A DNA stretch of 62,522 bases, filler included, from Actinomycetota bacterium (GTDB lineage Bacteria > Actinomycetota > Acidimicrobiia > IMCC26256 > VFJJ01), in NCBI GenBank assembly GCA_009886115.1. It is 4 parts of 4 records of this genome, joined end to end, with 100 filler letters (N's around TTAATTAATTAA, not from the genome) between each part and the next. Parts side by side here need not be neighbours in the genome. Positions count along the whole stretch, not along the records: positions 37,797 to 50,842 come from VFJJ01000216.1; 3 more parts are not named here. One strand, written 5' to 3'. Position numbers and translations under genes: made by a program. Under the pieces are notes generated by a model. That model was not told the DNA's origin. It saw only the letters and a program-made list of their open reading frames with translations, and searched no databases. This document shows, in pieces, positions 1 to 50,942 of the stretch (positions within the stretch are counted from its first letter, which is position 1; the number at the start of each line of letters is the position of its first letter).

Positions 1-2
1 GG

Positions 3-2226: not shown

Positions 2227-2249
2227 GCGCGGCCGAGCGTGTTCCGGCT

Positions 2250-2993: not shown

Positions 2994-3042
2994 CGATCCT
3001 CGTCGGTCGGCACATCGGTTCGGACGGAGCTGGCGGACGCCC

Positions 3043-4410: not shown

Positions 4411-4571
4411 CGTGGGTCCCGTTCTCACTGGTCGGCAGGGGTGTCGATAAAGTAGTGACCTATTTTACCAAGGGCCGACGGCATGGACCAGCGCCGACCG
4501 GGCAGCCCGGCGACACCGGCGACACCGGCCGAGCCGAGCCAACGCCATGGGTTGCCCAACGAGAGGTGAGC

Positions 4572-5756: not shown

Positions 5757-5797
5757 CGGCCCTCACCCGCCTGACGGCCGGCCCCTCCCCGATCTGC

Positions 5798-5843
5798 GTG
5801 CAGAAATCGTCGCCACGCGACGATTTCTGCACAAATTTGGAGG
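5798..5843. repeat. palindromic intergenic element, family A (copy 1)
   Basis: Perfect 16-bp IR gtgcagaaatcgtcgc-cac-gcgacgatttctgcac followed by aaatttggagg, between convergent genes. Confidence 0.85.
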
Positions 5844-6983: not shown

Positions 6984-7034
6984 GGCGGGCCTTTCGTAAG
7001 CTCGGGCTGCACCGAGATTACCTGGCGACTGCGC

Positions 7035-9118: not shown

Positions 9119-9235
9119 CGTGGCCTCCAGCCCCGGTGGGAGCAGCTCGTGTCGATCATGCGCCGGCGATCACCGACGACCTCGACACTATTCCGCAGCA
9201 TCGTGCGGTGACGGTGCTGAAGACCATGTATGACA

Positions 9236-9250
9236 ATATGATCATATAAT
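9236..9250 (+). promoter_or_regulatory. putative -10 box with overlapping palindromic ArsR operator
   Basis: atatgatcatat palindrome (9236-9247) overlapping TATAAT (9245-9250) in an AT-rich patch upstream of arsR-sulP. Confidence 0.6.
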
Positions 9251-9303
9251 AGGATCGTAAATCAATCAGATCCTCATCCATGCGATTGCTGAGGAGGCAC
9301 CAG

Positions 9304-9669
9304 GTGCCCGACCGCGAGCTCGAAGAGGCGCTGCATCGACCGATCTCGGAGCTCAAGGCCGAGTTGTTCAGGGCCTTGGCCCACCCGGCGCGCATCCGGA
9401 TCCTGGAGCTCCTCTCGGCGGGGGACCGGGCGGTCGGCGACATGCAGCCGCTCGTCGGTATCGAGTCGTCGCACCTGTCACAGCAGCTCGGAGTCCTCCG
9501 ACGGGCCGGAGTGGTGATCACGAGGAAGGAAGGGTCATCGGTGATCTACCGCCTCCGCGATCCGGCGATGGCCGATCTGCTCGCAGTGGCCCGGGGCATG
9601 TTGATCCGGACCCTGGCCGAGTCGACGGAGCTCCTGGCCGAGCTCCGGACCGCGGCCGGCGAGCCATGA
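9304..9669 (+). CDS. ArsR/SmtB family regulator
   Basis: KAELFRALAHPARIRILELL...SQQLGVLRRAGVV; GAGGAGG RBS before GTG 9304. Confidence 0.92.
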   Translation: MPDRELEEALHRPISELKAELFRALAHPARIRILELLSAGDRAVGDMQPLVGIESSHLSQQLGVLRRAGVVITRKEGSSVIYRLRDPAMADLLAVARGMLIRTLAESTELLAELRTAAGEP

Positions 9670-11387: not shown

Positions 11388-11428
11388 CGACGCACGCTGC
11401 GCGACCGGACCAGCTCCCTCGGGAAAGG

Positions 11429-12988: not shown

Positions 12989-13134
12989 CGTGAAGCTCCG
13001 TCCGCGTTCCTTGCGAGGGTTGGTTCAAAAAGCTTCACCTATATTACCGGCGAACCACGGAGCAGGCCGGCTCGCCCGACGGGCCTGATGTGGAAGCGGT
13101 TGATCCCGGGCGGTCCCAGCGGGCGGCTTGGGGC

Positions 13135-14799
13135 TCAGCCGGCGCGGAGACGGGCGCGCAGCTCGAACTTCTTGACCTTGCCGCTCATGCCCCGGGGGAG
13201 CTCGGTCACGAGCTCGATGCGCTCGGGGGTCTTCTGGCGGGCGACACCGGCCTCGGCGAAATGGCGGCGAACGTCGTCGAGGTCGAGGGTCTGGCCGGGG
13301 CGGGTTATCACGAACGCGGCGACCCGCTCGCCGTAGCGCTCGTCGGGGAACGCCACCACCGCTGCCTCCGACACAGACGGATGGCGGGCGAGGATGTCCT
13401 CGACCTCTTTGGACGAGATGTTCTCGCCGCCGCGGATGATGACGTCCTTCAGACGGTCGGTGATCGTGAGGAAGCCGGCGTCGTCGAGACGGCCGATGTC
13501 GCCGGTGCGGAACCAGCCGCCAGGGAGGAAGGCGATCGCATCGAGCGATGCGTCACGATAGCCCACGAACTGCTCGGGGCCGCGCAGGACGACCTCGCCC
13601 TCGTGGCTCACGGCCACGTCGCGACCGTCGGCGTCGACGATGCGGATCTCGTTGCCGGGCATGGGCCGGCCATCGGTCTCTGATCGCTGGGCAGCGCTGT
13701 CGTCGGGCTGACCACTGGTGGCCACCGGATGCTCGGTGGAGCCGTAGGCCCGGTAGGCGATGACCCCGGCAGCATGGGCCTGTTCCACCAGGGCCGGGGG
13801 CACGCTGGCGGCGCCGACCATGAAGTTGCGCAGGCTCGCGAGTGTGTGGCCCCCGGCCCGGGCGGCCTCGAGGAGCGACGTGAGGTGAAAGGGTGCGCCC
13901 GCGGTGTTCGTGACCCGGTGCTCGGCAACCAGCGCCGCCGCGGCGACGGGGTCCCACTGATCGAGCACGATGCTGGTGGTGCCGTTCACGAACGTCCGTA
14001 GGAGCTGCAGCACGCTGGCGATGTGGCCGGCCGGGAACGCGGCCAGATACACCGAATCGTCGGCCTGGCCGAGAAGCCCGGCGTTGCCCCGGGCCTCCGC
14101 CGCCAGCGTGTTGTGCGTGTGCTGCACCCCCTTGGGCTCCGCCGTCGTGCCCGACGTGTAGATGAGCAGGCACACGTCGTCGGCATCGGCTGAATCGCCG
14201 GGAGGAGTGAACCCCACCGACGACGTGGCGGCGAGCGCATGCCAGTCGTGGGCCCCCGGGGGACGTCGATCGCCGATCACGATCAGGTGCTCGAGTTGGG
14301 CCACCTCGCCGAGTGCATCGAAGCGCTCGAGATAGTCGATGCTGCGCCAACGATCGGGGACCACGAACGCCCGAGCCCCCGACTGGCGAAGAATGAAACC
14401 CACCTCGGCCGGACCGTAGATGTGCACGATGGGGACGATGACCGCACCGAGCTGCATCGCGGCCTGGTAGGTGAGCGCACCTTCGAGCCAGTTGGGGACC
14501 TGGATGGCGATGGTGTCGCCGGGCCCCAGGCCCAACCCGGCCAATCCCGCGGCCAGGCCCATGCTCCGTTCGTGCATCGTGTGCAGATCGGCCTGAGCGG
14601 GACGTTCCGATCCGTGGAAGATCGTCATGGCATCGGGGAAGCGCCGAGCCCCGTCGGCCATGAGCTGAGCCAGCGTCGAGGCGCTGAAGAAGCCCTCCCG
14701 ATACCACCGCTCACGCAACACCGAGCGCTCGGCCGCAAGCTCGGCCGCTCGCTGAGCGGCCATGGGTGGGGGAGCGGCCATGGGCGCAGGCGTGGCCAT
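13135..14799 (-). CDS. acyl-CoA ligase (cyclohexanecarboxylate-CoA ligase-like)
   Basis: YTSGTTAEPKGV, AYGSTE, FRTGDIG, QKTPE, SGKVKK. Confidence 0.9.
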   Translation of the reverse strand: MATPAPMAAPPPMAAQRAAELAAERSVLRERWYREGFFSASTLAQLMADGARRFPDAMTIFHGSERPAQADLHTMHERSMGLAAGLAGLGLGPGDTIAIQVPNWLEGALTYQAAMQLGAVIVPIVHIYGPAEVGFILRQSGARAFVVPDRWRSIDYLERFDALGEVAQLEHLIVIGDRRPPGAHDWHALAATSSVGFTPPGDSADADDVCLLIYTSGTTAEPKGVQHTHNTLAAEARGNAGLLGQADDSVYLAAFPAGHIASVLQLLRTFVNGTTSIVLDQWDPVAAAALVAEHRVTNTAGAPFHLTSLLEAARAGGHTLASLRNFMVGAASVPPALVEQAHAAGVIAYRAYGSTEHPVATSGQPDDSAAQRSETDGRPMPGNEIRIVDADGRDVAVSHEGEVVLRGPEQFVGYRDASLDAIAFLPGGWFRTGDIGRLDDAGFLTITDRLKDVIIRGGENISSKEVEDILARHPSVSEAAVVAFPDERYGERVAAFVITRPGQTLDLDDVRRHFAEAGVARQKTPERIELVTELPRGMSGKVKKFELRARLRAG

Positions 14800-14831
14800 C
14801 GATCCGAGCTCTCCGGGCCCGTGAGCCGCCG

Positions 14832-15704
14832 TTACCCGAGCGCGCCCTGCTCGCGGAGCGCGCTGATCTCATCCCAGTCGAGGCCCGCCTCGAGCAGCAC
14901 GTCCTCGGTGTGCTGACCCAGCTCCGGCGCCCGGGTCCGCGGTGCCGAGTGCACACCGTCGAAGTGCATCGGCGGCGACACCAAGCGAAACGCCGCCCCT
15001 GCGCCGTCGTCGATCTCGGGGAGGTACCCGTTGGCCGCCACCTGCGCATGCTCGTGCAGGTCGAGGAACGACAACACGGGCGCCCACACGCCGCTGAAGC
15101 CGTGGAACCGTTCACGCCACTGGTCGAGCGTGCGCGACGCGAACACGGCATCGAGGATCTCCACGCACTCGACCCGGTTCTCGAAGCGCACCATGGCGTT
15201 GGCGAACTTGGTGTGCTCGACGAGGTCGGGACGATCGAGCACACCACAGAGCTCGGCCCAGAACCGGTCGGCCTGCAGCAGCACGAGGTACAGCCATCGA
15301 CCGTCGCTGGTCCGGTACCCGTTGGTGATGGGGTTGCCCGGAGCCTTGCGGTCGAGGCGCATGAAGTCGTCGACATACGGCGCGCCGACGATGTCGGGGG
15401 CCAGCGACCACATGCCCACGTTCAGGAGCGACACGTCGACCTCGGACGGCTCACCGGTGCGCTCGCGCTTGAACAGCGCCATGGCGATCGCTCCGGCGAT
15501 GGTGTTCGCCCCCTGGAGGTCGTAGTACGCCGGCGGCTGGAACGGGGGCTCGCCGCCAGGCGGGGTGAGCCGGTAGGCCATGCCGCTACTGGCCCAGGCC
15601 GACGCCAGGTCGTAGCCACCGGTCTCGGCCATGGGCCCCTCGGAGCCCCAGCCGGAGCCTCGCACGTAGACGATGCCCGGCGCGACGGCTCGCACGTCGT
15701 CGAC
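14832..15704 (-). CDS. CaiB/BaiF CoA-transferase (5' truncated by contig end)
   Basis: GSGWGSEGP, GGYD, RERTGE, APELGQHT. Confidence 0.88.
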   Translation of the reverse strand, partial: VDDVRAVAPGIVYVRGSGWGSEGPMAETGGYDLASAWASSGMAYRLTPPGGEPPFQPPAYYDLQGANTIAGAIAMALFKRERTGEPSEVDVSLLNVGMWSLAPDIVGAPYVDDFMRLDRKAPGNPITNGYRTSDGRWLYLVLLQADRFWAELCGVLDRPDLVEHTKFANAMVRFENRVECVEILDAVFASRTLDQWRERFHGFSGVWAPVLSFLDLHEHAQVAANGYLPEIDDGAGAAFRLVSPPMHFDGVHSAPRTRAPELGQHTEDVLLEAGLDWDEISALREQGALG

Positions 15705-15804
15705 NNNNNNNNNNNNNNNNNNNNNNNNNNNNNNNNNNNNNNNNNNNNTTAATTAATTAANNNNNNNNNNNNNNNNNNNNNNNNNNNNNNNNNNNNNNNN
15801 NNNN
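15705..15804. other. artificial contig linker
   Basis: N44-TTAATTAATTAA-N44. Confidence 0.98.
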
Positions 15805-37696: not shown

Positions 37697-37796
37697 NNNN
37701 NNNNNNNNNNNNNNNNNNNNNNNNNNNNNNNNNNNNNNNNTTAATTAATTAANNNNNNNNNNNNNNNNNNNNNNNNNNNNNNNNNNNNNNNNNNNN
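37697..37796. other. artificial contig linker
   Basis: N44-TTAATTAATTAA-N44. Confidence 0.98.
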
Positions 37797-39098
37797 CTGG
37801 GTGCCGATCAGGAGGTCCTTGAAGGGGACGCCCTTGTCTGGGCGGGGTTCTGAGGGCAGCCCAAGGGTGCGCTCACCGAGCACGTTGCGCTGCACCTCGT
37901 CGGAACCGCCGTAGATCGACGGGGCCGGGCTGAACAGCACCACCTCGTTGTACGCGCCTCGGTTCGGGGCGTCGGAACCGGCCAGGAGGGCGTCGGGGCC
38001 GAGGATGCGCACCACGAGATCACGGCCGAGCCTGACGATACGGCTCATCGCCAGCTTGGCCATGTTGGGCTCGCCACCCGTCAGCCGTCGACCGGCCTGG
38101 GCCGCTGCCTTGGCCCGCAGGTTCCCGAAGCGGCCGATCTGCTCGAGGGTTCGCAGACGCATCAGGTCTTGGCGGATGGTGGGGTCGCTCCACACGCCGC
38201 GCTCGCGCGCCAGGGCCACGAGCGCGGTGCTCGACAGCGCCGTGCCCCCACCCGCCGTCGTACCCCGTCGACCGGTGCGGACGAAGTCGCCGGCCCGCCG
38301 GGACAGATCGCCGACGATCGTGCCCGGTGCGGCCAGACCGGCCGCATTGTGGCCTCCAGCGCCGAGGCCGGCTCGCTCGAAGTTGAGCGTGGTGTTGGCG
38401 ACAGCCCAGCCGTTGTCGAGCCCGCCGATCAGCGTGTCGGCGTGGCTGCGGGCGTCGATGAGGAACACCTCGTTGAACAGGGCCCGGCCCGTCATCTCAC
38501 GCAGGGGTCGGACGTCGATGGCGTCGGGCTGATGCATCGGAAGCGCGAAGTACGAGATCCCCGCGTGCTTGGGCACCTCCACGTTGGTGCGAGCGAGCAG
38601 CATCCCCTGGTCGGCCTGGTGGCCACCCGAGGTCCAGACCTTCTGCCCGTTGAAGATCCACTCGTCGCCGTCACGAACGCCCTTGGTCTGCAGGCCGGCC
38701 AGGTCGGAGCCGGCGCCGGGCTCGCTGAAGAGCTGGCACCACGCCTCGGCGCCGGTGACGATCGGCCACAGGTAGCGCTGCTTCTGCTCGTCGGTGCCGT
38801 GGACGATGATCGTGGGCCCGGCGAGCAGCATCCCGAGGCCACCGGGCGGTCCGAGCACGTTCGCAGCCTCGAATTCGTGGACCACGACCGCCATGAGGTC
38901 ACGGGTCAGGCCCCGACCGTGCCATGCGGACGGCCATGTGGGCACGGCCCAGCCCGATCCCGCGAGCAGCTCCCACCAGCCGGCCACGGTCAGCTCGGGA
39001 TCCCAGTGCGTGTGCAGCCAGGCGGCCAGCTCCTCGCCCACCGACGCGGCGTCGGTCGTCTCGGACATCGAAGCCATCGGAACCTCCGGGTTACTCAC
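37797..39098 (-). CDS. acyl-CoA dehydrogenase (stop beyond contig end)
   Basis: WCQLFSEPGAGSDL, GQKVWTS, FNEVF, IYGGSDEVQRN. Confidence 0.93.
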
Positions 39099-39165
39099 GG
39101 GTAGGTCGCCCAGGCTATCGACCGGCCTGGTTGCCTGGCGGACGGATCGCCGTCAAGCTGCGCCG

Positions 39166-39681
39166 ATGAACCCGCCCGATGACAGCACCGTGCCGACGCC
39201 GGTCCCGCGCCTGGCCTTCGTCCACGCCGACGACGTGGCCTTCACCGAGGTCGTCGCGCAGGAGCATCCCGGGGGCCGGCGGGTGTCGGCGTACAACAAG
39301 TTCCTCGAATGGACCGACCGGCGCCTGGTGAACATCACCCGCTACGACCCGGGACTGGTACTCGAACGGCACGCGCATGCGAGCGATCACGTGGTGTTCG
39401 TACTGGAAGGCGACCTGGAGATCGGCGGCCGGCCCTGCCCCACGGGCACGCTCATCGTGCTCGAGCAGGGCGCGGTGTTCGGGCCGCTCATCGCCGGGGC
39501 CGACGGGTGCACGCTGTTCGAGCACTGGGCCGGCGATCCGATGCCGGTGCCCGTCGATCCTGACCTGTACCACCGGACACTCGACGAGCGCGGCATCACC
39601 CGTCTGCCCAATCCCCCGTTCGATCCACCGGCCCACCTGTCGAACCGTGAGCGATTCGGCCGGGGCGACCGCTTCTCGTGA
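39166..39681 (+). CDS. cupin domain protein
   Basis: RHAHASDHVVFVLEG...GPLIAG.DGC. Confidence 0.75.
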   Translation: MNPPDDSTVPTPVPRLAFVHADDVAFTEVVAQEHPGGRRVSAYNKFLEWTDRRLVNITRYDPGLVLERHAHASDHVVFVLEGDLEIGGRPCPTGTLIVLEQGAVFGPLIAGADGCTLFEHWAGDPMPVPVDPDLYHRTLDERGITRLPNPPFDPPAHLSNRERFGRGDRFS

Positions 39682-39767
39682 GCCCGGCAGTATCGTGAGG
39701 CCATCGTCGTCGGGGGTCACCTGCCGCTCGCGAGAGCCGAGTTCGGCCATGCCCGGGAGCCGGTGTC

Positions 39768-40571
39768 CTACCGGCGCTGGAACCTCGGGACCCGCTTCTC
39801 GGCGAAGGCCAGGGGACCCTCCTTGGCGTCGTCGGTGCGGAAGATCGCCGATCCGTAGTCCTGCTCGTAGGCGAAGGCCTCGGGCTCGGTCATGCCCTGG
39901 GTCTCGTGCAGCGTCTTGAGGATGGCCTCCACGGCCAGGGGCCCGTTGCCGGCGATGACCTCGGCGATCTCGCGGGCCTTGGCCAGCGCCTGACCGTCGG
40001 GCACGACGTGACCGATCAGCCCCAGCGACTTGGCCTCGGCCGCGGTGATGTGCTTGCCGGTGAGGAGGATGTCGGCCGCCTCGGTGTAGGGGATCTGGCG
40101 GGCCAGGCGCACCGCCGAGCCGCCCATCGGGTACAGCGACCAGCGGGCTTCCGAGACGCCGAAGCGAGCCGACTCGCCGGCCACCCTGATGTCGGTGCCC
40201 TGGAGGATCTCGGTGCCGCCGGCGATGGCGACCCCCTCGACGGCGGCGATCACCGGCTTGGTGGGCCGGTAGCTCTTGAGCAGTCCCTTGTAGATGAGGT
40301 CGGGGTCGGCGGCCAGTCGGGCCGGCACGTCGACCCCGCTCGACTCGCCGGCATCGCCCGCCATCGCCCGGAGATCGGCGCCCGACGAGAAGTTCCCGCC
40401 GGCCCCGGTGAGGATGATCGCCCTGACCGAGTCGTCGCGGCTGGCCTCCATCCAGGCGTCGGCCATGATGATGTACATGGCCAGCGTCTGGGCGTTCTTG
40501 CGCTCGGGACGGTTCAGCGTGACGGTCATCACGTGCCCGTCACGTTCGACGATGCAATCAGGCATCGGCAT
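39768..40571 (-). CDS. crotonase/enoyl-CoA hydratase
   Basis: [44 protein letters not shown]. Confidence 0.93.
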
Positions 40572-41760
40572 CGGAGGGCTCCTGGGTCGCGTCCGGCTGG
40601 TGGTACTCGGTGATGGCGTTGCCGATGGCTTCCTGCATGGCGCCGATGAACCGGGTGCTGTTCGACCCGGCCCAGGCCAGGCTGGCCTGGCGGTTCACGT
40701 TGGCTCCGCTGTAGTAGGGCATCACGTGACGGGCGAAGAGCTCGTAGCTGCGCCGGGTCGCCTCGGGGGTGGCTGCGGTGTGGGTGAGGAACAAGAGCGT
40801 GCCGAAGCCGCCGCTCTCGTCGACGAGACGGTCGATGGTGGCGATGATGTCGTCGGGCGTGCCGATCGTGGCCACGCCCAGCACGTGGAAGCCGTCGCCT
40901 CGCCACTGGTCGATCGCCGCCTGGGCCGACGACGCCCACGGCGGCATGCCCCTGCCGCCGAGGCCGCCCATGTAACGGGCCAGGTCGAGGATCCCGTGCG
41001 CCGCCTCGGCATCGGCCTGCTCGCGCGTCTCGGCGATGTGCATGGGGACGACCACCCGCCAGTCGGCCCGATCGGGCACGTGACCATGCTCGATCGCGGC
41101 CTTCTCGTAGATGGCCCAGTTGGCGGCCAGGGTGGCGAAACCCTGGGCGGTGCTCGCCGCGACCGACAGGAGTCCGGCGCCATGCCGGCCCGCAGCGACC
41201 GAACCCGTCGGTGAGAACGTCGACGCCACGGCCACGTCTATTCCGCGCCGCGGGTCATAGGGCAGAAGCTGGCAGCGGGCTTCGTCGAGCACGAACCAGT
41301 CGGTCTTGGCACTCACCACCTCGCCCCGCATCAGCGGGACGATCGCATCGAGGGCCTCGTGCATCATGCGCCGCTGGTCCCGGGGGTCGATGCCCATCAT
41401 GAAGGCGTCGGCGGGGAGCTGGCCGGGGCCGACGCCGAGCATCATCCGGCCCTGGGTCTGGTGGTCGAGCTGGATGATGCGATCGGCCAGCAGCAGCGGA
41501 TGGTGGTACGGCAGCGAGCTGACGCCCGTCCCGAAGCGGATGCGGCTCGTGTGCTCGGCCGCGGCAGCGATGAACACCTCGGGCGAGGCGATGATCTCGA
41601 AGGCCCCACTGTGGTGCTCGCCGATCCAGGCCTCGTCGTAGCCCAGCCGGTCGAGGTGCGCGATCAGCTCGATGTCCTGACGCAGCTGCAATGACGGATG
41701 CTGGCGATCGGAATGGAAGGGCGCGATGAACACGCCGAACTGCTGGGGACCTCTGGTCAT
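40558..41760 (-). CDS. LLM-class flavin monooxygenase (LimB-like)
   Basis: [41 protein letters not shown]. Confidence 0.9.
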
Positions 41761-41872
41761 CGGGCTTCCTCGAGGTGCCGGTCGCTCACTGGTCGGGTGC
41801 GGTGTCGGACAGTGCATCTGAGTCGGTGCGACCGGGCTCTCGCAAGGCGGGCGGCGGGGGCCCGGCCCCTCC

Positions 41873-42132
41873 TCAGCCGGCGGGGCTCGGCGTCAGGCGC
41901 CGCCGCAGGCTCCTGCGGTCACCGCTTCGGAGGAGGACCAGGGCGCAGAGCACCAAGCACAGAGCTCCCAGGGCGATGGGGTGCTGCGCCGCCGAGCCCT
42001 CGTCGCCGGGCTTGGGCTCGGGCTCGGTCGGCGACTCGGTCCTCGTGACACCGTCCACGGCGACCAGGTAGGTGCCCGAGCTCAGGCCCGGGACGGTGAG
42101 CTCCCCAGACGAGCTCCGACGTTGTCGGGTGG
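41873..42132 (-). pseudogene. orphan 3' end of a membrane-anchored protein
   Basis: GELTVPGLSSGTYLVAVDG...PEPKP...TM helix..RRR; the frame is closed upstream by a stop near 42133 with no signal peptide. Confidence 0.45.
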
Positions 42133-42261
42133 ATCATCCCGAGACGGACCGGCACTCCGCCAACTCAAGAACCAGCCCCCGAAATCACCCCAATGCGCCC
42201 CGCTATCGAAGTACCTCGCGAGGTTCAGTCCAGTTTCAGCGACCGTCGTGCTCATAACGAA

Positions 42262-42945
42262 CTAAGAGCTTGACGAGCGTCCGACGAAGCGCCACGGGCT
42301 GGCCTGGCGAGGAGTCTTGTACTGCTTGATGGACTGTTCGATCCGCGATCTGACGGACGGTTCGATCGAGATGAACCGACAGCGGACCAGATAGGTGGTT
42401 TCACCACCAAACATGGGGGGCTCGATTCCTGCCACCACCGCATCTGCGAAGGCCGACCCATCAGGGAGACCGATCCTCAGCACGAGGGCATCGCCGATGC
42501 TCAGGGAACGGTCAGCTCGAAATGACAAACCCCCGAGGCCGATATCCGTGGTCCTCGTCTCGATGCCCAGACGATCGGTGCCTGTTCCGGCCACGACGTT
42601 CAAGAGATACGCGACTTGAAGGCGACGGTTGTTGCGCTGTTCGATCCGGTCGACGATTCGCGGCAGGGTGCACACCACGAGACCATCGCCATCGAGTTCA
42701 ACCGTCTGCTCGATCAGGGTTCGGAAGGAGTCGACGCCCAGGTCCGACTCCCGAGTGACGACGACATTGCGCTCGCGGCGGGTTCGCAGTAGGCGGTCGC
42801 TCGCGCCGATTCGTACGCCAAACGCCGACTCGTTGACCACGGAGACGACGCCTCGGGATCTGATCGAACGCCAGAGATTCGGGCTGTAGCACAAGACGAC
42901 GGCATCGCCGACGGCCAGCGGAGCGTCGACATAGTCGATCATCAT
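42262..42945 (-). CDS. PilZ domain protein (YcgR/flagellar-brake-like architecture)
   Basis: N-terminal beta domain then EQRNNRR (RxxxR) and TTDIGLGG (variant of D/NxSxxG). Confidence 0.8.
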   Translation of the reverse strand: MMIDYVDAPLAVGDAVVLCYSPNLWRSIRSRGVVSVVNESAFGVRIGASDRLLRTRRERNVVVTRESDLGVDSFRTLIEQTVELDGDGLVVCTLPRIVDRIEQRNNRRLQVAYLLNVVAGTGTDRLGIETRTTDIGLGGLSFRADRSLSIGDALVLRIGLPDGSAFADAVVAGIEPPMFGGETTYLVRCRFISIEPSVRSRIEQSIKQYKTPRQASPWRFVGRSSSS

Positions 42946-42999
42946 GAGTGGGGTCCGCTCAGAATGTGCGCACTCCGCGCACCGGGTCCAATGTCCCAA

Positions 43000-43028
43000 G
43001 TATCGGTGGCCCTGAGACCAACCTTGAC
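43000..43028 (-). promoter_or_regulatory. sigma28/FliA-type promoter of pilZ
   Basis: Minus strand GTCA-N17-ACCGATAC. Confidence 0.65.
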
Positions 43029-43107
43029 AGACTGGCCCAGAATCGCCGCGTACGTGTGCTGCTGCTGCCGCTGTGTCGTTGTTAGCTCCTCATGGCCCGT
43101 ATAGGGA

Positions 43108-44331
43108 TCAGCGGAGATGGTTGCCGGTCCGAACCGACTCCCCGCGCAGCCGACGGACGGGTCCGTCGAGCAGTCGCTTGACCTCGGTCGCCAACGCTCG
43201 TCGGTGCTGCTCCTCGCAGGCGGCGGGGTCGTTGACCCGCGCCGTGACCCGCTCGACGAACTCGGGGATCTGACGGTACAGGTCGCTGATGATGGCTTCG
43301 ATCCCAGCGGAGGCCGAGGTCTGGGCCCATTCCCGAGTCGCATCGTCGACGAGTTGCTCCAACTGCCGGCGGTGGTCTTCCACCCGGCCGAGCGCGGACT
43401 CCACACCCGCGCCGATCCCGATCAGGTCCACGAGCTCGACGCCGGGCAGGCGGCCGGCGTCCGGATCGATGTTCCTCGGTAGACCAAGGTCGACCAGGAG
43501 CAAGGAGCCCACCTCACGCGGACCTGTCGCCTCGACGAGCTCGCGGGTGACCACCATGTGCGGTGCGGACGTGGCAGCGACGACCGTGTCGACGCGGCCC
43601 ATGAGGCCCGCGAGCTCGTCCCACTCGTGCGGCTCGGCGCACCACCGGCGGGCCACCGATTCGGTCGCCTGGTAACGGCGGCCGACGATCGAGACGTGAA
43701 CACCCGGCCGGCGCAGGGTCGCGGCCACGACACGCTTTGCCATCGCGCCGGTCCCGATCACGAGAACAGATCCGGAACCAGTCCCGGCGCTCGACCAACG
43801 GTCGAGCACCATGCGAGCCGCAGCATCGCCGGCGCTGGTGGCGATCTTGTCGAGGCCAAACTGACGACGTGCGTCACGTCCCAGCCGGATGGCGCGGGTG
43901 AACACATCGTTGATGCCGACCCTGGCGGTGCCGGCGCTCGCAGCGCTGGTCAGGGCCAAGCCGAGCTGCGACACGATCTGCGCGTCTCCGAAGACCGACG
44001 ACTCGAGCCCACATGACACCCGAAAGATGTGGCGGGCTGCCTCGCCGTCTCGGGCCTCGAAGGTCCACCCGGCATCGGAGGGATCGGTGACGACTCCATC
44101 GGCCAACACGTCGCGAAACGCCTCGACGGGGTCATCCTCGCTGGCGAGGTACCACTCGGTGCGGTTGCACGTGGACAGCAGCGCCACCTCGAGATCGGCC
44201 CGGCGGCTGCGCACGTGGCCCAGGGTCGCCATCGAACCGAACCCGCTCGTCGCCAGTTGCTCGAGGTGCGCGAGCGATGCGGTCCTCACGTTCGCACCCA
44301 CAACCGCGAGGTGCAGCTGTCGATTCTTCAC
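43108..44331 (-). CDS. hemA: glutamyl-tRNA reductase (divergent, stand-alone)
   Basis: LSTCNRTEWY, HIFRVSCGLES, GTGAMA, VAATSAPH, DLGLPRNIDP. Confidence 0.88.
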   Translation of the reverse strand: MKNRQLHLAVVGANVRTASLAHLEQLATSGFGSMATLGHVRSRRADLEVALLSTCNRTEWYLASEDDPVEAFRDVLADGVVTDPSDAGWTFEARDGEAARHIFRVSCGLESSVFGDAQIVSQLGLALTSAASAGTARVGINDVFTRAIRLGRDARRQFGLDKIATSAGDAAARMVLDRWSSAGTGSGSVLVIGTGAMAKRVVAATLRRPGVHVSIVGRRYQATESVARRWCAEPHEWDELAGLMGRVDTVVAATSAPHMVVTRELVEATGPREVGSLLLVDLGLPRNIDPDAGRLPGVELVDLIGIGAGVESALGRVEDHRRQLEQLVDDATREWAQTSASAGIEAIISDLYRQIPEFVERVTARVNDPAACEEQHRRALATEVKRLLDGPVRRLRGESVRTGNHLR

Positions 44332-44337
44332 CGGCGA

Positions 44338-46695
44338 TCAGGACCCGATGGACGCTTTGTCGCGTGAGAGGTTGGCGAGGAGCGACGGCGCCAGAGCCGA
44401 CAGCACTGCTGTGAGGTCGAGGATCTCGGTGACCCGCCCCTGGACCACGGCCGAACCGGTGATCCCGGCAGTGTTCGACACCTGCTGGACGACGATGCGT
44501 TCTTCGATGACATCGATGATGCGGTCCACCGCCACGCCGATCGTATGGCCGTCGATCGACAGGACCACCACGGCGGCGGTCTCGGACTCGCTGGTGGCGG
44601 CGTTCGGGAACAGGTCGGCGAGCCAGACGATCGGCATGATCGTTTCGCGGTACTGCACGACCTTCTGATTGCCGCTCTGCTCCATGGACGAGAGCGGGAT
44701 CTCCTCGAGGCGGTTCACGCTCGACAACGGCATCGCGGCGATGCGCTCCGACTCGCCCGTTCCGGTGCCGACGAGGAGCAGCCGCTGGCCGCGGTTCGCC
44801 TCGGACTCCTGGCGCACCGCCCCCGAGCCGTTCTTGGGTTCACGACTGGTGCCGAGGCCGGCGTTACCGGCAACCCCGAGCACGTCGAGGATCAGCCCCA
44901 CCCGGCCGTCGCCCATGATGGTTGCTCCGGCGAAGCTCGAGATGTGCTTGAGCAGCTTGCCGAGTGGCTTGACCACGATCTCCTCGGTGTCGAGGATATC
45001 GTCGACCACGAGACCGAAGGCCCGGTTGTCAGCCTGGAGAATGACGATGTTCAATGCGCCGTCGTGGTGCGAGACGGCCGTGTCGGACACGTCGCCCTGC
45101 CCCGCCGCGACCTCGTCCGCGGGAGCGACCTGCAGCTCCTGTTGGAGGTAGAGGAGCGGGAGGAGCTCGCCCCGCAAGCGGTAGACGAGCGCGCCGTGGA
45201 TCTCACTGATGCTGGCAGCCGCATGGCCCTCCTCGATACGCACCAGCTCGAGCAGGTTCACCTGGGGGATGGCGTAGGAGTCACCTGCCGTCTTCACCAT
45301 CAGAGCCGGGATGATGGCCAACGTGAGCGGGATCTTGATCCGGAAGGTCGTGCCCTGGCCGAGCGTCGTGTTGATGTCGATCGACCCGCCGATCTTCTCG
45401 ATGTTCGTCCGGACGACGTCCATGCCCACGCCTCGTCCGGAGAGGTTCGAGACCGTCTCAGCGGTCGAGAACCCGGGAAGGAAGATCAGGTCGAGGATCT
45501 CGCGGTCGCTCATCCGAGTGACCTGATCCGGGGTCACGGTGCCGCGGCTCAGCGCCTTCTCCCTGATCCGGGCGACGTCGATACCGCCGCCGTCGTCGCT
45601 GATCTCGATGTTGACCTGACCACCTTCGTGGTACGCACGGAGGTGGAGCCGGCCCTCCGCGGGCTTGCCGCAGGCCTCCCTCACCTCGGGCAGCTCGACT
45701 CCGTGATCGACGGCATTGCGCACCAGATGGGTGAGCGGGTCCTTGACGGCCTCGATGATCGTCTTGTCGAGCTCGGTCTCGGCGCCTTCCATCTCGACGC
45801 GCACGTGCTTGTGGCAGGTACCGGCGAGGTCGCGCACGATCCGGGGGAACTTGTTCCAGATGTTGCCGATCGGCTGCATCCGGGTCTTCATCACGCCTTC
45901 CTGGAGCTCGGTCGTGATGTGGTTGAGTCGCTGCGACGTCCCCAGGAACGAGGCCTCGGCGACGACCGCCGAGACCTGGAGGATCTGGTTGCGGGCCAGC
46001 ACCAGCTCGCCAACGAGGTTCATCAGCTTGTCGAGCAACCCGACGTCGACCCGGATGGTCGTGTCGGCGGCGCTACCAGCGCCGCTGGTCGGGGCTCCGG
46101 ATGCAACGGATGCGACGGCCGCCTCGTCGCCGCCGGCGGCGGTCGGAGCCGGGCCCGCCGGACCCACCCCGGCGGCCTCGTGGGTGTCGCCGGTCGGCAC
46201 CGGGGCCCCCCCCTCGTCACCGTCACGGACATCGTCAGAGGCAGCGTTGCCACCGGTGTCGCCGGTCGGTGCCGAGCCTGCGGGGTCGGCATGCGTTGCA
46301 CCGTCGCCTTCGCCGGCGAGGCGAGCGAGCCCGGCGATCATCTCGGCGTGGTCGTCGGTGCCGTCGTTCCCAACGGTCTCGAGGTGGCCGAGCATCACGC
46401 GCACCGCGTCGACCATGGCGAGGAGCGCGGACGTGATCTCCTCGGTGAGCTCGAGCTTCTTGTCCCGCAGGCGTGAGAGGAGATTCTCTCCCACGTGCGT
46501 CAGCGCCTCGAGGCGGTTGAGGCCGAGAAACCCCGAGCTCCCCTTGAGCGTGTGCACGGTGCGGAAGATCGAGGCGATGATCTCCTCGTTGGGTTCGGTT
46601 TCCAGGACGATGAACTGCCGGTCCAGGTTGTCGAGATTCTCGTAGCTCTCGACGAGGAACTCCTGAACCAGCTCATCGACTACCAAGTCGCTCAT
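44338..46695 (-). CDS. cheA: chemotaxis histidine kinase CheA with two CheW-like domains
   Basis: FRTVHTLKG (Hpt His), IRVDVGLLDKLMNLVGELVL, HLVRNAVDHG, DDGGG, FLPGFST, GRGVGMDVV, two CheW folds. Confidence 0.96.
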   Translation of the reverse strand: MSDLVVDELVQEFLVESYENLDNLDRQFIVLETEPNEEIIASIFRTVHTLKGSSGFLGLNRLEALTHVGENLLSRLRDKKLELTEEITSALLAMVDAVRVMLGHLETVGNDGTDDHAEMIAGLARLAGEGDGATHADPAGSAPTGDTGGNAASDDVRDGDEGGAPVPTGDTHEAAGVGPAGPAPTAAGGDEAAVASVASGAPTSGAGSAADTTIRVDVGLLDKLMNLVGELVLARNQILQVSAVVAEASFLGTSQRLNHITTELQEGVMKTRMQPIGNIWNKFPRIVRDLAGTCHKHVRVEMEGAETELDKTIIEAVKDPLTHLVRNAVDHGVELPEVREACGKPAEGRLHLRAYHEGGQVNIEISDDGGGIDVARIREKALSRGTVTPDQVTRMSDREILDLIFLPGFSTAETVSNLSGRGVGMDVVRTNIEKIGGSIDINTTLGQGTTFRIKIPLTLAIIPALMVKTAGDSYAIPQVNLLELVRIEEGHAAASISEIHGALVYRLRGELLPLLYLQQELQVAPADEVAAGQGDVSDTAVSHHDGALNIVILQADNRAFGLVVDDILDTEEIVVKPLGKLLKHISSFAGATIMGDGRVGLILDVLGVAGNAGLGTSREPKNGSGAVRQESEANRGQRLLLVGTGTGESERIAAMPLSSVNRLEEIPLSSMEQSGNQKVVQYRETIMPIVWLADLFPNAATSESETAAVVVLSIDGHTIGVAVDRIIDVIEERIVVQQVSNTAGITGSAVVQGRVTEILDLTAVLSALAPSLLANLSRDKASIGS

Positions 46696-46794
46696 CACAT
46701 CCCCGCTCGACGGAAGTTGTTGTGGTTCCGCTACCCGTGGAGCCGCAGGCACCTGAGCAGGTGACCGCGACTCCACGGGTCCGGCACGGCGAGA

Positions 46795-49053
46795 TCAGCT
46801 CTTCGAGGTGGACAGAGCCAGGAGCTGGGCGGCCAGCCGGGAGAGCTCCACGCTGGCACCTTGCACCTCGGAGGCACCCTGCGTCGTCTGGTTCGCGCTC
46901 TCGGCGACCCCTCCGATGTTCTCGGTGATGCTGGCGACGCCAGTCGCGGCCTCCTGGACCGAGCGACTCATCTCGGCCGTCGTGGCCGACTGCTCCTCCA
47001 CCGCCGTTGCGATGGTGGCGGAGATGTCGTTGATCTCGCCGATCACCTGCGAGATCGTCCCGATGGCCGATACGGCGTGCTGCGTGTCGACCTGGATGGC
47101 CTCGATCTTCTGGCCGATGTCCTCGGTCGCCCTGGCGGTTTCCTTGGCCAGCTCCTTGACCTCGTTGGCGACCACGGCGAATCCCTTGCCGGCCTCGCCG
47201 GCCCGAGCGGCCTCGATCGTGGCGTTGAGGGCGAGGAGGTTGGTCTGCTGGGCGATCAGGGTGATCACCTTGATGACCTTGCCGATCTCCACGCTGCTCT
47301 CGCCGAGCTTGCCGATCATCTCGTTCGCCTCGCTGGCCGTGACCACCGCCGAGCCCGTCACCTGGGCCGCCCGTGAGGCGTTGTTGGCGATCTCACCGAT
47401 GCTCGCGGTCATCTCCTCGGCCGCGCTCGCCACGGTCTGGACGTTCTCGGTCACCTGATCCGACGATGCCGACACGACCGTCGCCTGGGTTGCGGTCTCC
47501 TCGGCGCCAGCGCTGAGCGTGGTGGCGGTGGCTGTGAGCTCCTCGGCGGCACCGGCGAGACTCTGCGCGATCTCGGCCGTCTCGGCCGCGATCCGGGTCA
47601 TCTCCTCGGTGCGGATACGGTCGGCCTCGGCGGCCTGCAGACGACCGATCGCCTCCCCGAGGCCCCGACCTACTCCCCGGAGCGTGTCGAAGCGCCCCTC
47701 CGACGGGTCGAGGATCTCGGTGGCGAACCAGTCCAACGTCCCCGCCACGGCGCCGCCCACCATGATCGGGACGCACACACCCGACTTCACACCCACTCGC
47801 TTGGCGATCGGGGCCCGGCAACAATCGGTCATGTCGCCGATGTCCTTGGCGAAGAACAGGTCGCGGGTCCTCCACGCCCGGCCCGACAGCCCCACACCCT
47901 CGGCGAACGACGCCTCCTGTGTCACCCGACGGAACTCCTCACCGGCATCACCCGACTCGGCCGCGAAGCGCAGCACGTTGGCCGTCGGGTCGATCGCCCA
48001 GTACGAGCTGTACACCCACCCGAACTCGTTGCGGACCGCATCGAGCGCGTCCTGCACAGCCTGCTCGGCCGACTCGGCAGCCGCCAGCGCCCCGCTGACC
48101 TTGAACGACGCTGCCAAGTTCTCCGCCATGTCCTTCATCTGCGCTTCAGCCTGATCCTTGGCACGAAGCTGCTCGGTGACCACCGACCACGAGGCCATCG
48201 CGCCGATGTAGTCGCCTGAGGTGTCGAGGATCGGCGAGACCAGCAGGTCGAGCGTCTCCGGCCCGACCTGGATGTTCGCCTGGCGGGGAAGGTGCGCCTT
48301 CGGGTCAGCGAGGAGCCCCCGCTGATAGCTCGGGTCCTTGTGGAAGATGTCGATCGACTGGCCGATCAGGTCGTCGACCTTGACCGGCAGGAAGGCCTCC
48401 AGCGTCTTCAACGTCTTCACCGATGCAGGGTTCATGTACCGCAGGATGAGATCCTTGTCGGCGAACATGACGTTGATCGGCGCGTTCTCGAGCAGCTGAT
48501 GCGCAAAGTCGACGTCCTGTGAGTTCTCGAGTACCGCGCTTGCACCGTTGAGGGCCATGGACTGCTCCGTTTCCGCGGCCCGATCGCCGCTGCTTGTCGT
48601 GCTCGCCGTGTTCGCTTCATTGCTCGGGGTGGGGTTGCCGTCGTGCGAGACGATGTCGGCCGACAGCGGCGCCACGACGCTGACGACCTCGTCGATGAGA
48701 TCGGTCGAGACGCCGAGCGACACCAGGACCTCGACGAGATGCCCGGCGACCCGGTCGAAGTCCTGCTGGTGGATCGCCAGGTGGGCGTGGGCCGCGGACA
48801 TGCTGGGACCCTTGTAGATCGCCGGCCCGCCCAACGCCGTCGAGAGGAACTGGACCTGCCGGTTCTTCAGGCGGGTCACGTTCACATCATCGAAGAACCC
48901 GACCAGCTCCGGGTCGCCGAGCAGGCGCTCGTAGAGCGCATCGACCGCGGCAACGATCGAGTTCTTGCCGCCGAGACGCTCATACAGGCTCGGGGGCCCG
49001 GTCTCGGGAGCGGGGGGGGCTTTCGCCACGACAGCGGAGCGATGCTCGGCCAT
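46795..49053 (-). CDS. soluble MCP: truncated globin (group I) - Aer2-like PAS - GAF - signalling domain
   Basis: [75 protein letters not shown]; no TM helix. Confidence 0.93.
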
Positions 49054-49119
49054 GCAACACCACCTCTGGTCAGTAGTTCGGACAGTTGGACGGGGGGTCC
49101 AAGAGGGATATCTCGTCGG

Positions 49120-49147
49120 TTATCGGACGATCGCCGCGAACCTTGAG
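49120..49147 (-). promoter_or_regulatory. sigma28/FliA-type promoter of the MCP-cheA-hemA unit
   Basis: Minus strand CTCA-N16-TCCGATAA. Confidence 0.75.
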
Positions 49148-49174
49148 AGCATTGTGCGAAAAGAGGTCATTCAT

Positions 49175-49224
49175 GATCCGCGAAAGAGGACGATCCGCGA
49201 AACAGGACGATCCGCGAAAGAGGA
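49175..49224 (+). repeat. 17-bp tandem repeat x3
   Basis: gatccgcgaaa(g/c)aggac, contiguous copies. Confidence 0.9.
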
Positions 49225-49330
49225 ACTGCGGGAGCTGCGGGTCGAGGGCGTGCTCGGTGCCGTGCGTCGTTCCACCAAGGGAACTGAACCGGGGGATCCG
49301 TGGGGTTCAGTGCCGATCACCGTTGCTCGG

Positions 49331-49771
49331 CTAGTCGGCGCGGCTTACCTCGGCGGCCTTGTCGGCGTCGAGGATCAGAAGCAGCCGGTCCTCGAGCTTG
49401 TAGATGCCCTCGATCAATTCACCGGGAACACCCCGGATGGTGTCGAGCCGTCGCTCGAAGATCTCGTCACCGACCTCGACGACGTCGCCGATCTCATCGA
49501 CCAGAAAGCTCACGGGCCCGTCGTCGGTACGTACGACGACGTTCATCGGTAACTGGTCGTCTGGGCGCTCGGACAGTTCGAGTCGGCGACGGAGATCCAG
49601 CGCTGTGACGATCTGGCCGCGCAGGTTGATGAGGCCCTCCACCACTGCCGGGGCCAGCGGGACGTGCGTCATCTGCTGATAGCGGATGACCTCCTGGACC
49701 CGAAGCACGTCGACTCCGAAGTAGTGCTCATCCAAGAGAAACGTGCAGTATTGGCGTGCCCGCTCGGCCAT
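49331..49771 (-). CDS. cheW: chemotaxis coupling protein CheW
   Basis: QYCTFLL..FGVDVLRVQEV..GLINLRGQIV..LVDEIGDV. Confidence 0.96.
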   Translation of the reverse strand: MAERARQYCTFLLDEHYFGVDVLRVQEVIRYQQMTHVPLAPAVVEGLINLRGQIVTALDLRRRLELSERPDDQLPMNVVVRTDDGPVSFLVDEIGDVVEVGDEIFERRLDTIRGVPGELIEGIYKLEDRLLLILDADKAAEVSRAD

Positions 49772-49835
49772 GGTCGGTTCCCCTGAGCCCAGGATCGGCA
49801 ACCCCGATCCGATCCGTGATTTGCGATTCGTGATG

Positions 49836-49864
49836 ACATCGGGCAGTTGGGCTCTCGACTTGAG
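49836..49864 (-). promoter_or_regulatory. sigma28/FliA-type promoter of cheW
   Basis: Minus strand CTCA-N17-CCCGATGT. Confidence 0.65.
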
Positions 49865-49936
49865 CGAATCGCGCAAGTTTTTCCGGCTCCTCGAGAACAC
49901 GAGACAGCTCGACCTACCCGCGTAGTCGCGCGGCTC

Positions 49937-50614
49937 ATGGTCGCTCGGGCGGATCGCAGCTGTGCTTATCCTTTCTCGCCAGCCGCCGATTTCCCCAGTA
50001 TGCAGGCCGTTCTGCGACAAGCAGCCCTCGAGTTCGTCGATGTCGATGCGGAGACGTTCCTGCGCATGGTCCGCCACCGGACCTCGTCCGACGCTGCCAA
50101 GGGCGGCGTGAGGTCCCAGTACGAAGCCCAGCTGGCTCGGGGCGACTCGTCGGTACAGGTGTTGGGTCTTACAGCGTGCGGAACGCTGGTCGGAGCGGTC
50201 AGCGTCGGCTTGGTCGACCTACGCCTCAAACCGGACACGGTCGGAGGGCGTATCGACATCGTCGTCACCGAACCGCACTGTCGCGGACTCGGCGTCGGTG
50301 GAGTGCTCGTCGCCGCGGCCATCCAGCGTCTCATCACCGATCACGGTCCCAGATTGCGGCACCTCTCCACGATCGCCGTGCACCCCGCGATCGCCCACAT
50401 GGTCGAGAACCTCGAGTTCATCCGCGTTCCCACGGGCGACGTTCCTCTCTACGCTCGCGATGTGGAGGAAGCCACCATCGCCGCGTTGAGCAAGCGGGCC
50501 AGCACATTGCTGAGCTCGTCGCTGAGGAGTCTGCGCCTGCGTTGCGTGGATTGCCGACGCAAGCAGTGGTCTGAACCCTGGTGCCTTCCGAGTCCGACCC
50601 GTCGCAACGTCTGA
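49937..50614 (+). CDS. GNAT family acetyltransferase (start uncertain)
   Basis: IDIVVTEPHCRGLGVGGVL acetyl-CoA motif A; C-terminal CVDC...C. Confidence 0.7.
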   Translation: MVARADRSCAYPFSPAADFPSMQAVLRQAALEFVDVDAETFLRMVRHRTSSDAAKGGVRSQYEAQLARGDSSVQVLGLTACGTLVGAVSVGLVDLRLKPDTVGGRIDIVVTEPHCRGLGVGGVLVAAAIQRLITDHGPRLRHLSTIAVHPAIAHMVENLEFIRVPTGDVPLYARDVEEATIAALSKRASTLLSSSLRSLRLRCVDCRRKQWSEPWCLPSPTRRNV

Positions 50615-50735
50615 TCCCGCCCGATCGGCTGCCGGTTCCTGGTGCCTCCCAAAACGAGGCGTAGGCCACCGAGGTCCGCTCAGGAATGTGCCCCAACTCG
50701 TGGATCTTCACTCAGGTCGCGTCGGCCTGCATCCG

Positions 50736-50842
50736 TGTCGACGTTCAAGTAATCCACCGCGTGGTGGGTGGTGTGTTCAAGTAATCCTCCGGCGGGCGTT
50801 CACGTATTCCCTCGCGGCGCGTTCACGTTATGGAGCGGCGCC
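50736..50842. mobile_element. probable IS end with multiple terminal repeats (IS21-like)
   Basis: TGTCGAC start; gttca(a/c)gt-core repeats at 50743, 50775, 50798, 50821; contig breaks at 50842. Confidence 0.55.
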
Positions 50843-50942
50843 NNNNNNNNNNNNNNNNNNNNNNNNNNNNNNNNNNNNNNNNNNNNTTAATTAATTAANN
50901 NNNNNNNNNNNNNNNNNNNNNNNNNNNNNNNNNNNNNNNNNN
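50843..50942. other. artificial contig linker
   Basis: N44-TTAATTAATTAA-N44. Confidence 0.98.

Follow-up and report, generated by a model that had tools for sequence, protein, structure and literature searches.

A divergent glutamyl-tRNA reductase paralogue in chemotaxis gene clusters with heme-type receptors

In the assembly GCA_009886115.1 of an Actinomycetota bacterium (Acidimicrobiia, IMCC26256) a homologue of glutamyl-tRNA reductase (GluTR, HemA) lies inside a chemotaxis locus, and it is this gene and its relatives in other che clusters that are considered here. The locus falls in a stretch of 62,522 bases (the window) and comprises, on the evidence of open reading frames (ORFs) and Pfam matches, five genes on the minus strand in the order cheW, chemoreceptor (methyl-accepting chemotaxis protein, MCP), cheA, GluTR homologue and PilZ gene, with the start of the GluTR homologue (44331) placed 6 bases beyond the stop codon of cheA (44338-44340); the five co-oriented genes and the 6 bp gap had both been read correctly from the sequence alone. 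The GluTR homologue is a second copy, since a full hem cluster is found on another contig, C54, of the genome, and it joins a branch of GluTRs from the Actinomycetota, Acidobacteriota and Verrucomicrobiota of which 13 of 14 members sit in che clusters, mostly right after the gene for a heme-type receptor. Our explanation, a tentative one drawn from sequence comparison, is that this would be an active GluTR which is made together with a heme-rich receptor and raises the supply of heme precursor.

Linkage of GluTR to che clusters

The branch is marked by a single residue: in the G-E-x-Q-I motif the Glu, kept in 112 of 112 other GluTRs, is Asp in all eight che-linked copies compared, and it is by this residue that loci are called Asp-type or Glu-type below. 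Since the window GluTR is without close relatives, other members were reached through CheA and the receptor; a search with the window GluTR alone gave 21 loci at 25-35% identity, 18 of them Glu-type without che genes, two untyped and one with no hit. CheA matches were found in 24 of 201 genomes of the order, and in two of the 15 CheA loci examined (genomes G152 and G129) a GluTR homologue lies inside the che cluster, the gene order being cheA-cheW-globin/PAS MCP-GluTR-fliN-cheX in G152 and cheA-cheW-GluTR-cheB in G129; each of these genomes also holds a housekeeping hemA. The G129 locus (L061, G129:C5) has CsrA upstream and a truncated-looking cheB downstream of GluTR. When 78 loci were collected with the N-terminal 330 residues of the receptor, the MCP gene proved to be followed at once by a GluTR gene in four of them (L075, uncultured; L087, Acidimicrobiales; L146 and L147, Terriglobia); the order there is cheA-cheW-(globin)-PAS MCP-GluTR, and next come cheB/cheR/cheX/HDOD or an ABC1 kinase.

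Scans seeded with GluTR itself used an alignment of che-linked copies (80 loci) and P0024, a blind-test protein picked by sequence alone (80 loci), and pooled with the window-protein scan these three scans gave 181 rows. Asp-type rows lie beside che genes in eight of ten cases, which is seven of nine distinct contigs as L152 and L238 share one contig, and two of those seven contigs are short or end there and show only an MCP. Of 164 Glu-type rows one has che genes alongside, namely the housekeeping-like L221, which is on the opposite strand; six rows were untypable and one was without a hit. A receptor with a globin and/or an Aer2-like PAS is present in the same locus in 11 of 14 che-cluster loci, the exceptions being L061, which has no MCP match, and L236 and L242, in which the MCP match is untyped. 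The linkage of che genes and GluTR, singled out from the window sequence alone, recurs in other genomes and phyla, and the window version (cheW-MCP-cheA-GluTR-PilZ, with cheY, cheB, cheR and cheX split off) is a rearranged, highly divergent member.

An ABC1 (UbiB-like) kinase gene directly follows the Asp-type GluTR in four loci (L075:8216-9787, L235:10160-11788, L239:10115-11731 and L240:10040-11782), and the four kinases are 37-46% identical to one another; in L239 the ABC1 kinase and receiver genes lie between GluTR and cheB/cheR. An ABC1 gene near cheX on contig C110 of the window genome was considered as an orthologue of these kinases and rejected, as it is 25-33% identical to them over partial length and is no better a match to them than is a second ABC1 on C144. 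At 25-33% identity, against 37-46% among the linked kinases, the window genome is taken to be without an orthologue of the GluTR-linked ABC1.

Phylogeny and the Asp signature

The trees all place the che-linked copies together on one side of a branch, with Shimodaira-Hasegawa-like approximate likelihood ratio test (SH-aLRT) support of 98 for 120 rows under LG+G4, 97 for 59 rows under the C20 mixture model and 95 for 150 rows that include 13 che-linked copies and L240; when the two other long che rows are removed (57 rows), the window copy stays with the che set at a support of 97. All supports are SH-aLRT values from quick searches and the trees are unrooted; L061 (frameshift) was excluded from the 120-row tree, as were L201, L066 and L017, each shorter than 330 aa. 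As the searches were quick, the trees have no root and the window copy has the longest branch, its exact place inside the che set is unsure. Members of the branch are 29-49% identical to one another, apart from the Terriglobia pair L146/L147 at 74%.

When a profile of the branch was run against 1.84 billion representatives, all 30 matches of ranks 1-30 were Asp-type, as were 27 of the 30 at ranks 31-60 (the other three untyped); by ranks 121-150 Glu-type proteins made up 27 of 30, and among the top 150 matches Asp is present in at least 95 distinct 50%-identity clusters. One GluTR outside the che branch also carries Asp (L267:4728-5915, Vicinamibacteria) and lies beside hemB and a hemL-type aminotransferase gene; on sequence comparison the Glu would here have turned to Asp independently, in an enzyme of a hem cluster.

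The paralogue as an enzyme

Besides GlutR_N the paralogue matches Shikimate_DH, the NADPH-binding Rossmann domain (72.5 bits), in which G193 and G195 are invariant, and the STCNR motif with the nucleophilic Cys is invariant in 8 of 8 che-linked copies as it is in 112 of 112 other GluTRs. The che-linked copies show no variation in STCNRTE with its Cys, in the RH.FRV His, in GL.S and Q or in the NADPH loop GxGxxA. Two reviews (PMC7242693, PMC6399207) describe GluTR chemistry as attack of the Cys on an ester, giving a thioester, followed by hydride transfer from NADPH. The full-length AlphaFold2 (AF2) model of the paralogue has a predicted local distance difference test score (pLDDT) of 91 and a predicted template modelling score (pTM) of 0.88, and its top Foldseek matches are GluTR structures, from Arabidopsis at a template modelling (TM) score of 0.71-0.73 and from Methanopyrus at 0.50; it retains the long spinal helix (317-366) plus one further helix (373-402). 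The N-terminal His found in 97 of 112 ordinary GluTRs is Phe in six of the eight che-linked copies, and the Glu replaced by Asp is, we take it, a residue of the glutamate substrate pocket.

A receptor with two heme-type sensor domains

Pfam matches in the receptor are Bac_globin (aa 22-134, 71.6 bits), GAF_2 (aa 327-469) and MCPsignal (aa 574-722), and Pfam finds neither HAMP nor, at E <= 0.01, PAS; as it leaves aa ~187-312 blank, the PAS assignment rests on the search of PDB structures. The closest solved globin is HbN of M. tuberculosis (1IDR), and in the alignment the distal Tyr and Gln and the proximal His of HbN (B10, E11 and F8) are kept, the proximal His being invariant in 13 of 13 receptors. 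The PAS keeps the FHK His and the later Trp of Aer2, both nearly invariant in receptor alignment A3 (made without L073, which has an internal stop), and the Trp is, we assume, the O2-stabilising residue. The two predicted heme-binding domains, globin and PAS, that had been picked out from the sequence alone are supported by homology to the 1IDR globin and to Aer2 PAS structures. A 2026 aerotaxis review gives H234 as the residue with which Aer2 of P. aeruginosa coordinates its b-type heme, and it states that every PAS domain of the multi-PAS Aer2 receptors binds heme (PMC13401364).

For the GAF domain a solved relative below E 0.05 was not found; it is closely similar to the two tandem GAFs of the L087 receptor, with which it has in common a conserved pattern, G-W-x-Y-x-S-Y-W ... 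M-T-D-C-x-R-A-P, and it resembles the N-terminal domain of plant MYC only faintly. The best NCBIfam model for the receptor is Aer2 of Vibrio at 151.8 bits, far under its cut-off of 1200. The receptor family numbers 1811 proteins at E <= 1e-20, many of them with PF01152+PAS+GAF+PF00015 and some named from Acidimicrobiia, Mycobacteriales and Nocardioides, and relatives carry 2-4 heme-type PAS repeats, up to four plus a globin. Some related operons have the truncated globin as a separate small gene beside a PAS-only MCP (L152:6760-7104, L147:5738-6157, L235:4936-5619), with L235 holding a separate globin gene plus a fused globin. Genome G000 encodes a further Bac_globin-domain protein (L234:1676-2434, G000:C6; 57.2 bits, an open frame of 252 aa) that is 34% identical to the receptor globin domain and has no MCP signalling domain.

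Chemotaxis, flagellar and housekeeping heme genes in the genome

The genome is 95.6% complete, and its CheW family matches number three, all on C37, the contig that holds the locus (CheW and two CheA domains), with one MCPsignal match. The locus is the genome's only CheA/CheW/MCP and its single flagellar chemosensory core, and for that reason it is not an add-on array beside a main one, as the sequence-only reading had proposed. The same reading was right to expect CheY, CheB and CheR from elsewhere, as these are encoded on C110, where HDOD, cheR and cheB share a strand and the opposite strand carries a CheY-like receiver and cheX; the C110 che genes are 49-55% identical (cheX 36%) to their counterparts inside operon L087. 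Flagellar genes, for which that reading had advised a search, are present on C142 (fliL, fliM, a CheC-FliN fusion, a receiver, fliO, fliP, flhA and flagellin), and the genome holds a complete flagellar chemotaxis set of CheA, CheW, MCP, CheY, CheB and CheR with the flagellar switch.

The housekeeping heme genes are on C54, in the order Rex-like gene, hemA, hemC, hemD, hemB and a class-III aminotransferase at the hemL position, so that the che-linked hemA is not the only copy, which had been a point to be settled. The C54 hemA has all three GluTR Pfam domains (PF00745 90.9 bits) and a TIGR01035 score of 400.9. In a scan of the whole genome GlutR_N has two matches, the hem-cluster gene scoring 172.4 bits and the che-linked copy 99.6 bits (96.7 bits in the Pfam search of the window), and the latter is 26% identical to its own housekeeping HemA. 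Two or more GlutR_N matches are found in eight of eight examined genomes with a che-linked copy; the carriers G264 (C1, C66, C257) and G266 (C47, C110, C139) have three each, the third copies scoring 156 and 143 bits. The Opitutus and Pelagisphaera records among the carriers are metagenome-assembled genomes.

Independent assemblies, RNA libraries and a same-genus control

Ten public runs from six studies hold the stretch or part of it, and four were compared over 41500-50842. A 5584-nt DNA contig from an independent study spans 41611-47193 with 43 differences and thereby confirms the order monooxygenase, PilZ, GluTR, cheA and MCP, which answers the question of misassembly. Metatranscriptome contigs cover 43621-43854, 44495-46173, 46180-47170 (the MCP/cheA junction), 47152-48258 and 48577-48952, one (48939-49809) runs over the cheW/MCP spacer, and one, which includes position 44333 and has 50 nt between there and its end, crosses the cheA/GluTR junction; these contigs across junctions are consistent with co-expression. 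With a second hemA, a linkage that recurs, an independent assembly of the same order and RNA contigs that cross the junctions, none of the findings that the sequence-only reading had named as fatal to itself was made.

A genome of the same genus, G001, provides a control. Its locus (L051, G001:C25:1-14000) has flanks that match those of the window, the monooxygenase being 95.7%, the hydratase 95.1% and the dehydrogenase 92.0% identical, and at the same site stands a cheA-cheW-MCP cluster that is ~50% identical and differently ordered. The MCP of G001 has HAMP and MCPsignal with a sub-threshold 4HB (21.8 bits vs 27); a heme domain was not found in it, nor a GluTR paralogue in G001. A GGDEF gene lies in G001 where the window has PilZ, and genes connected with cyclic di-GMP (c-di-GMP) are thus in both. 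The GC content of the che island is 0.64-0.69 vs ~0.70 in the flanks. Because G001 differs at this site and the island GC is lower, the che cassette looks exchangeable at a fixed site, and the paralogue appears to travel with the heme-type receptor.

Possible roles of the paralogue

If the paralogue is still an active GluTR, as the kept Cys nucleophile, NADPH site and GluTR fold suggest, its production together with the receptor would raise the rate-limiting heme-precursor step while the array is being built, and the array would demand 2 to 5 hemes per receptor subunit. GluTR is under heme binding and feedback control, and a divergent paralogue may escape the controls that restrain the housekeeping enzyme. 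The array would sense O2, nitric oxide (NO) or redox state and signal through CheA to the CheY of C110 and on to the flagellar switch of C142, with CheB, CheR and CheX supplied from C110.

A number of observations weigh against this explanation. The paralogue has no match to the dimerisation domain PF00745 at E <= 0.01, and its TIGR01035 score of 200.4 bits is under the hemA equivalog cut-off of 209.55, which che-linked L147 (256.6) and L056 (221.5) do pass. Since Asp replaces a Glu that is invariant in ordinary GluTRs, specificity or regulation may be different. No copy is more divergent than that of the window, which has an end branch of 2.1-2.2; a relative of more than 35% identity was not found among 5.8 billion clustered proteins, and the closest in 60 genomes of the same order is at 33%. 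Tallies over genomes take in some that are flagged as unpublished (G054, G249, G075, G092, G125, G118), on which none of the specific claims depends. Only the first heme-pathway enzyme is duplicated. No GluTR gene is nearby in 74 of the 78 heme-type receptor loci, and branch member L240 (Limisphaerales) has no che gene within 19 kb and only the ABC1 kinase adjoining. The G129 GluTR gene (L061:7315-8961) is split over two frames near 7986-8040, which is either a frameshift error or a pseudogene. Lastly, contigs from RNA libraries cannot prove a single transcript, as such a library may hold DNA, and the contigs that cross the junctions agree with co-expression and go no further.

It is also possible, if somewhat unlikely, that the GluTR-derived protein is a signalling accessory that has heme, NADPH or Glu-tRNA as its ligand and informs the array of heme, redox or charging status, or that helps heme loading, in a role likened to that of CheD, CheC and CheX in che operons. 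Its gene stands in the operon core, as a rule with the MCP gene on one side and cheB/cheR or cheY on the other, and the fast evolution of the branch (long end branches, and the 29-49% identity seen outside L146/L147), the branch-specific Asp for Glu and Phe for the common His, and a dimerisation-domain signal that is weak or absent would all suit such a role, as would the heme binding and feedback control of GluTR in general. Against this every scored catalytic and cofactor motif is kept, which argues for retained catalysis, and the hem-cluster GluTR of L267 likewise carries Asp beside hemB and hemL, so that the residue is compatible with a hem-cluster enzyme. A broader proposal, which we regard as unlikely, would make the branch a new chemosensory component, with ABC1 as a partner, that couples the array to tetrapyrrole, redox or Glu-tRNA status or modifies receptor glutamyl esters; were it true, there would be an unrecognised class of 'cofactor-aware' energy-taxis systems in the Actinomycetota, Acidobacteriota and Verrucomicrobiota.

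It would seem improbable that there is no functional link at all, with a duplicated hemA that hitch-hikes on a mobile che cassette or decays. The exchange at the G001 site between flanks of 92-96% identity, the lower GC of the island, the frameshifted G129 copy and the extreme divergence of the window copy are what such a passenger might leave behind, but the linkage is kept over three phyla despite rearrangements of gene order, 13 intact copies have open frames and invariant catalytic motifs, and Asp-type proteins form the many 50%-identity clusters counted above, which is too much conservation for a passenger. More improbable still is a changed substrate, in which Cys-thioester and NADPH chemistry would act on another glutamyl ester, such as the gamma-glutamyl methyl esters of receptors, or on another aminoacyl-tRNA: the chemistry of Cys on ester with hydride transfer, the flanking of the gene by the MCP gene and cheB/cheR in L087, L146 and L147 and the Asp in all che-linked copies would fit, but the idea is pure inference, CheB and CheR are also present, the other pocket residues are all unchanged and in the window the gene follows cheA instead of the MCP gene. 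We know of no precedent for a GluTR with a changed substrate of this kind.

The locus and its neighbours

The window consists of four contigs from an assembly of 224, joined by spacers of 44 N, 12 bases and 44 N (15705-15804, 37697-37796 and 50843-50942): C35 at 1-15704, C36 at 15805-37696, C37 at 37797-50842 and C40, whose number is not next after C37, from 50943. Since separate contigs are joined, adjacency across the spacers is not real. The whole locus is on C37 (13,046 bp), which ends at 50842, and everything from 50943 on belongs to a different contig. Features of the locus are given in Table 1.

Table 1. Coordinates in the window of the genes, receptor domains and repeats of the locus.
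Feature	Positions	Strand	Basis
PilZ-domain protein, 245 aa from TTG	42262-42999	-	PilZ 29.8 bits vs cut-off 22.5
Che-linked GluTR paralogue, 407 aa	43108-44331	-	Pfam GlutR_N + Shikimate_DH
cheA, 812 aa	44338-46776	-	Pfam: Hpt, dimerisation, HATPase_c, two CheW-like domains
Soluble chemoreceptor, 752 aa	46795-49053	-	Pfam; genome's only MCPsignal match
Receptor: MCP signalling domain, aa 574-722	46888-47334	-	MCPsignal 102.9 bits
Receptor: GAF domain	47647-48075	-	GAF_2 52.3 bits
Receptor: predicted Aer2-type heme PAS, aa ~187-312	48118-48495	-	6CEQ E 2.6e-16, 3VOL 1.8e-13, 4HI4 4.3e-11
Receptor: group-I truncated hemoglobin (trHbN) domain, aa 22-134	48652-48990	-	Best PDB match 1IDR, E 4.9e-27
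Three tandem 17-nt repeats in the 277-bp cheW-MCP spacer	49175-49225	.	94-100% identity
11-nt inverted repeat just past the cheW stop	49280-49314	.	91% complementary, 13 nt between arms
cheW, 146 aa	49331-49771	-	Pfam CheW 101.6 bits
Divergent ORF, sub-threshold GNAT	49847-50614	+	Acetyltransf_1 19.5 bits, under cut-off 20.7

The cheW ORF as listed reaches 50077, and the 146 aa follow from a CheW domain that begins just past the first Met. The start of cheA is 18 bp beyond the receptor stop; CheA, in which Pfam finds no receiver domain, is 45-56% identical to the CheA of related clusters. Beyond PilZ are a luciferase-like monooxygenase gene (40558-41817) and then an enoyl-CoA hydratase and an acyl-CoA dehydrogenase, and between the monooxygenase gene and the end of C37 Pfam finds no cheY, cheB or cheR, as had been noted from the sequence.

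The PilZ gene may alternatively start at a later ATG, at 42948. PilZ receptors of c-di-GMP carry the motifs RxxxR and D/NxSxxG, which in this protein read RNNRR and DIGLGG, with Gly at the expected Ser. The divergent ORF that had been called a GNAT gene is indeed present, but its match to that family is sub-threshold, NCBIfam gives none, and its membership of the module is doubtful; a metatranscriptome contig covers 50370-50592 inside it. Neither PilZ nor the GNAT-like ORF has a tblastn match in any of the 15+78+80 related loci, so that both are local neighbours and not conserved module parts, and the place in the module once given to PilZ has to be withdrawn. RNA-library run X6 has zero cover over 41812-42747 (the 3' part of PilZ and the spacer), a span that DNA runs do cover, and this says nothing on PilZ expression.

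The 17-nt repeats are a candidate operator or promoter region and may perhaps be a variable regulatory site. Repeat length varies in two other assemblies of near-identical strains, with 14 nt missing at 49192 and 9 nt added at 49225. For the 14-nt repeat core the window has three matches vs 1.86 expected, which is no evidence for a regulon. A promoter/terminator scan gave 0 promoter-like and 3 terminator-like sites vs 0.7 and 2.7 in shuffles and is uninformative, and it did not call the inverted repeat a terminator.

Comparison with known systems

Literature searches, judged from titles and the starts of abstracts, gave no description of GluTR in chemotaxis operons, and the dedicated che-embedded branch appears to be undescribed; neither the type of receptor nor the enzyme family is new. 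The novelty that the sequence-only reading saw in the module as a whole has to be narrowed accordingly, for the linkage of che genes to GluTR appears to be new whereas the globin and PAS receptor has a counterpart in Corallococcus and Aer2 PAS-heme receptors are well studied. To our knowledge the accessory proteins of che operons (CheC/D/V/X/Z), which are among the best-studied bacterial gene sets, are all signalling proteins, and a conserved paralogue of a biosynthetic enzyme inside them would add a novel type of accessory. An active enzyme would make this a sensory machine with its own cofactor supply and would bear on the allocation of cellular heme; an inactive one would be an enzyme repurposed in signalling.

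Canonical GluTR (HemA/GtrR; TIGR01035; PF05201+PF01488+PF00745; 1GPJ, 4N7R) shares with the paralogue its fold over the whole length, the Cys, His, Arg and Gln motifs and the NADPH loop; the paralogue differs in its separate branch, in Asp for Glu, in lying in a che operon instead of with hemC/D/B/L and in being an extra copy. For annotation it follows that an Asp-type GluTR in a che context should not be taken for the hemA of the cell.

HemAT transducers, like the window receptor, are soluble and join a heme globin to an MCP signalling domain, but HemAT uses a protoglobin-type sensor globin, whereas the window receptor matches Protoglobin only at E 0.0051, under the cut-off, and matches Bac_globin and trHbN. 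The 'aerotaxis' cluster Cc-5 of Corallococcus coralloides, described in silico, has a cytoplasmic MCP of Bac_globin+PAS+MCPsignal, its own che cluster and ABC1 and ABM accessories, as given in the main text of Sharma et al. 2018 (PMC6194562). It is thus similar in having a globin and PAS receptor in a che cluster of its own, and ABC1 is also the gene that follows GluTR in L075, L235, L239 and L240; it is dissimilar in that 'glutamyl' occurs 0 times in the paper (PMC6194562), whose supplements may list neighbouring genes.

The Aer2 receptors of Che2-type clusters (P. aeruginosa, Vibrio, Leptospira) come close to the window receptor in the match to a heme PAS with its ligand His, in being soluble and in having their own cheA and cheW. 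In the aerotaxis review the words glutamyl, tetrapyrrole and truncated are absent, and no report of a GluTR gene in Aer2 clusters was found there (PMC13401364). Unlike those receptors the one described here is without a detected HAMP and adds an N-terminal truncated globin and a GAF domain, and the GluTR branch that accompanies receptors of this type offers experimenters a means of probing what Aer2-type oxygen receptors do, which is still debated.

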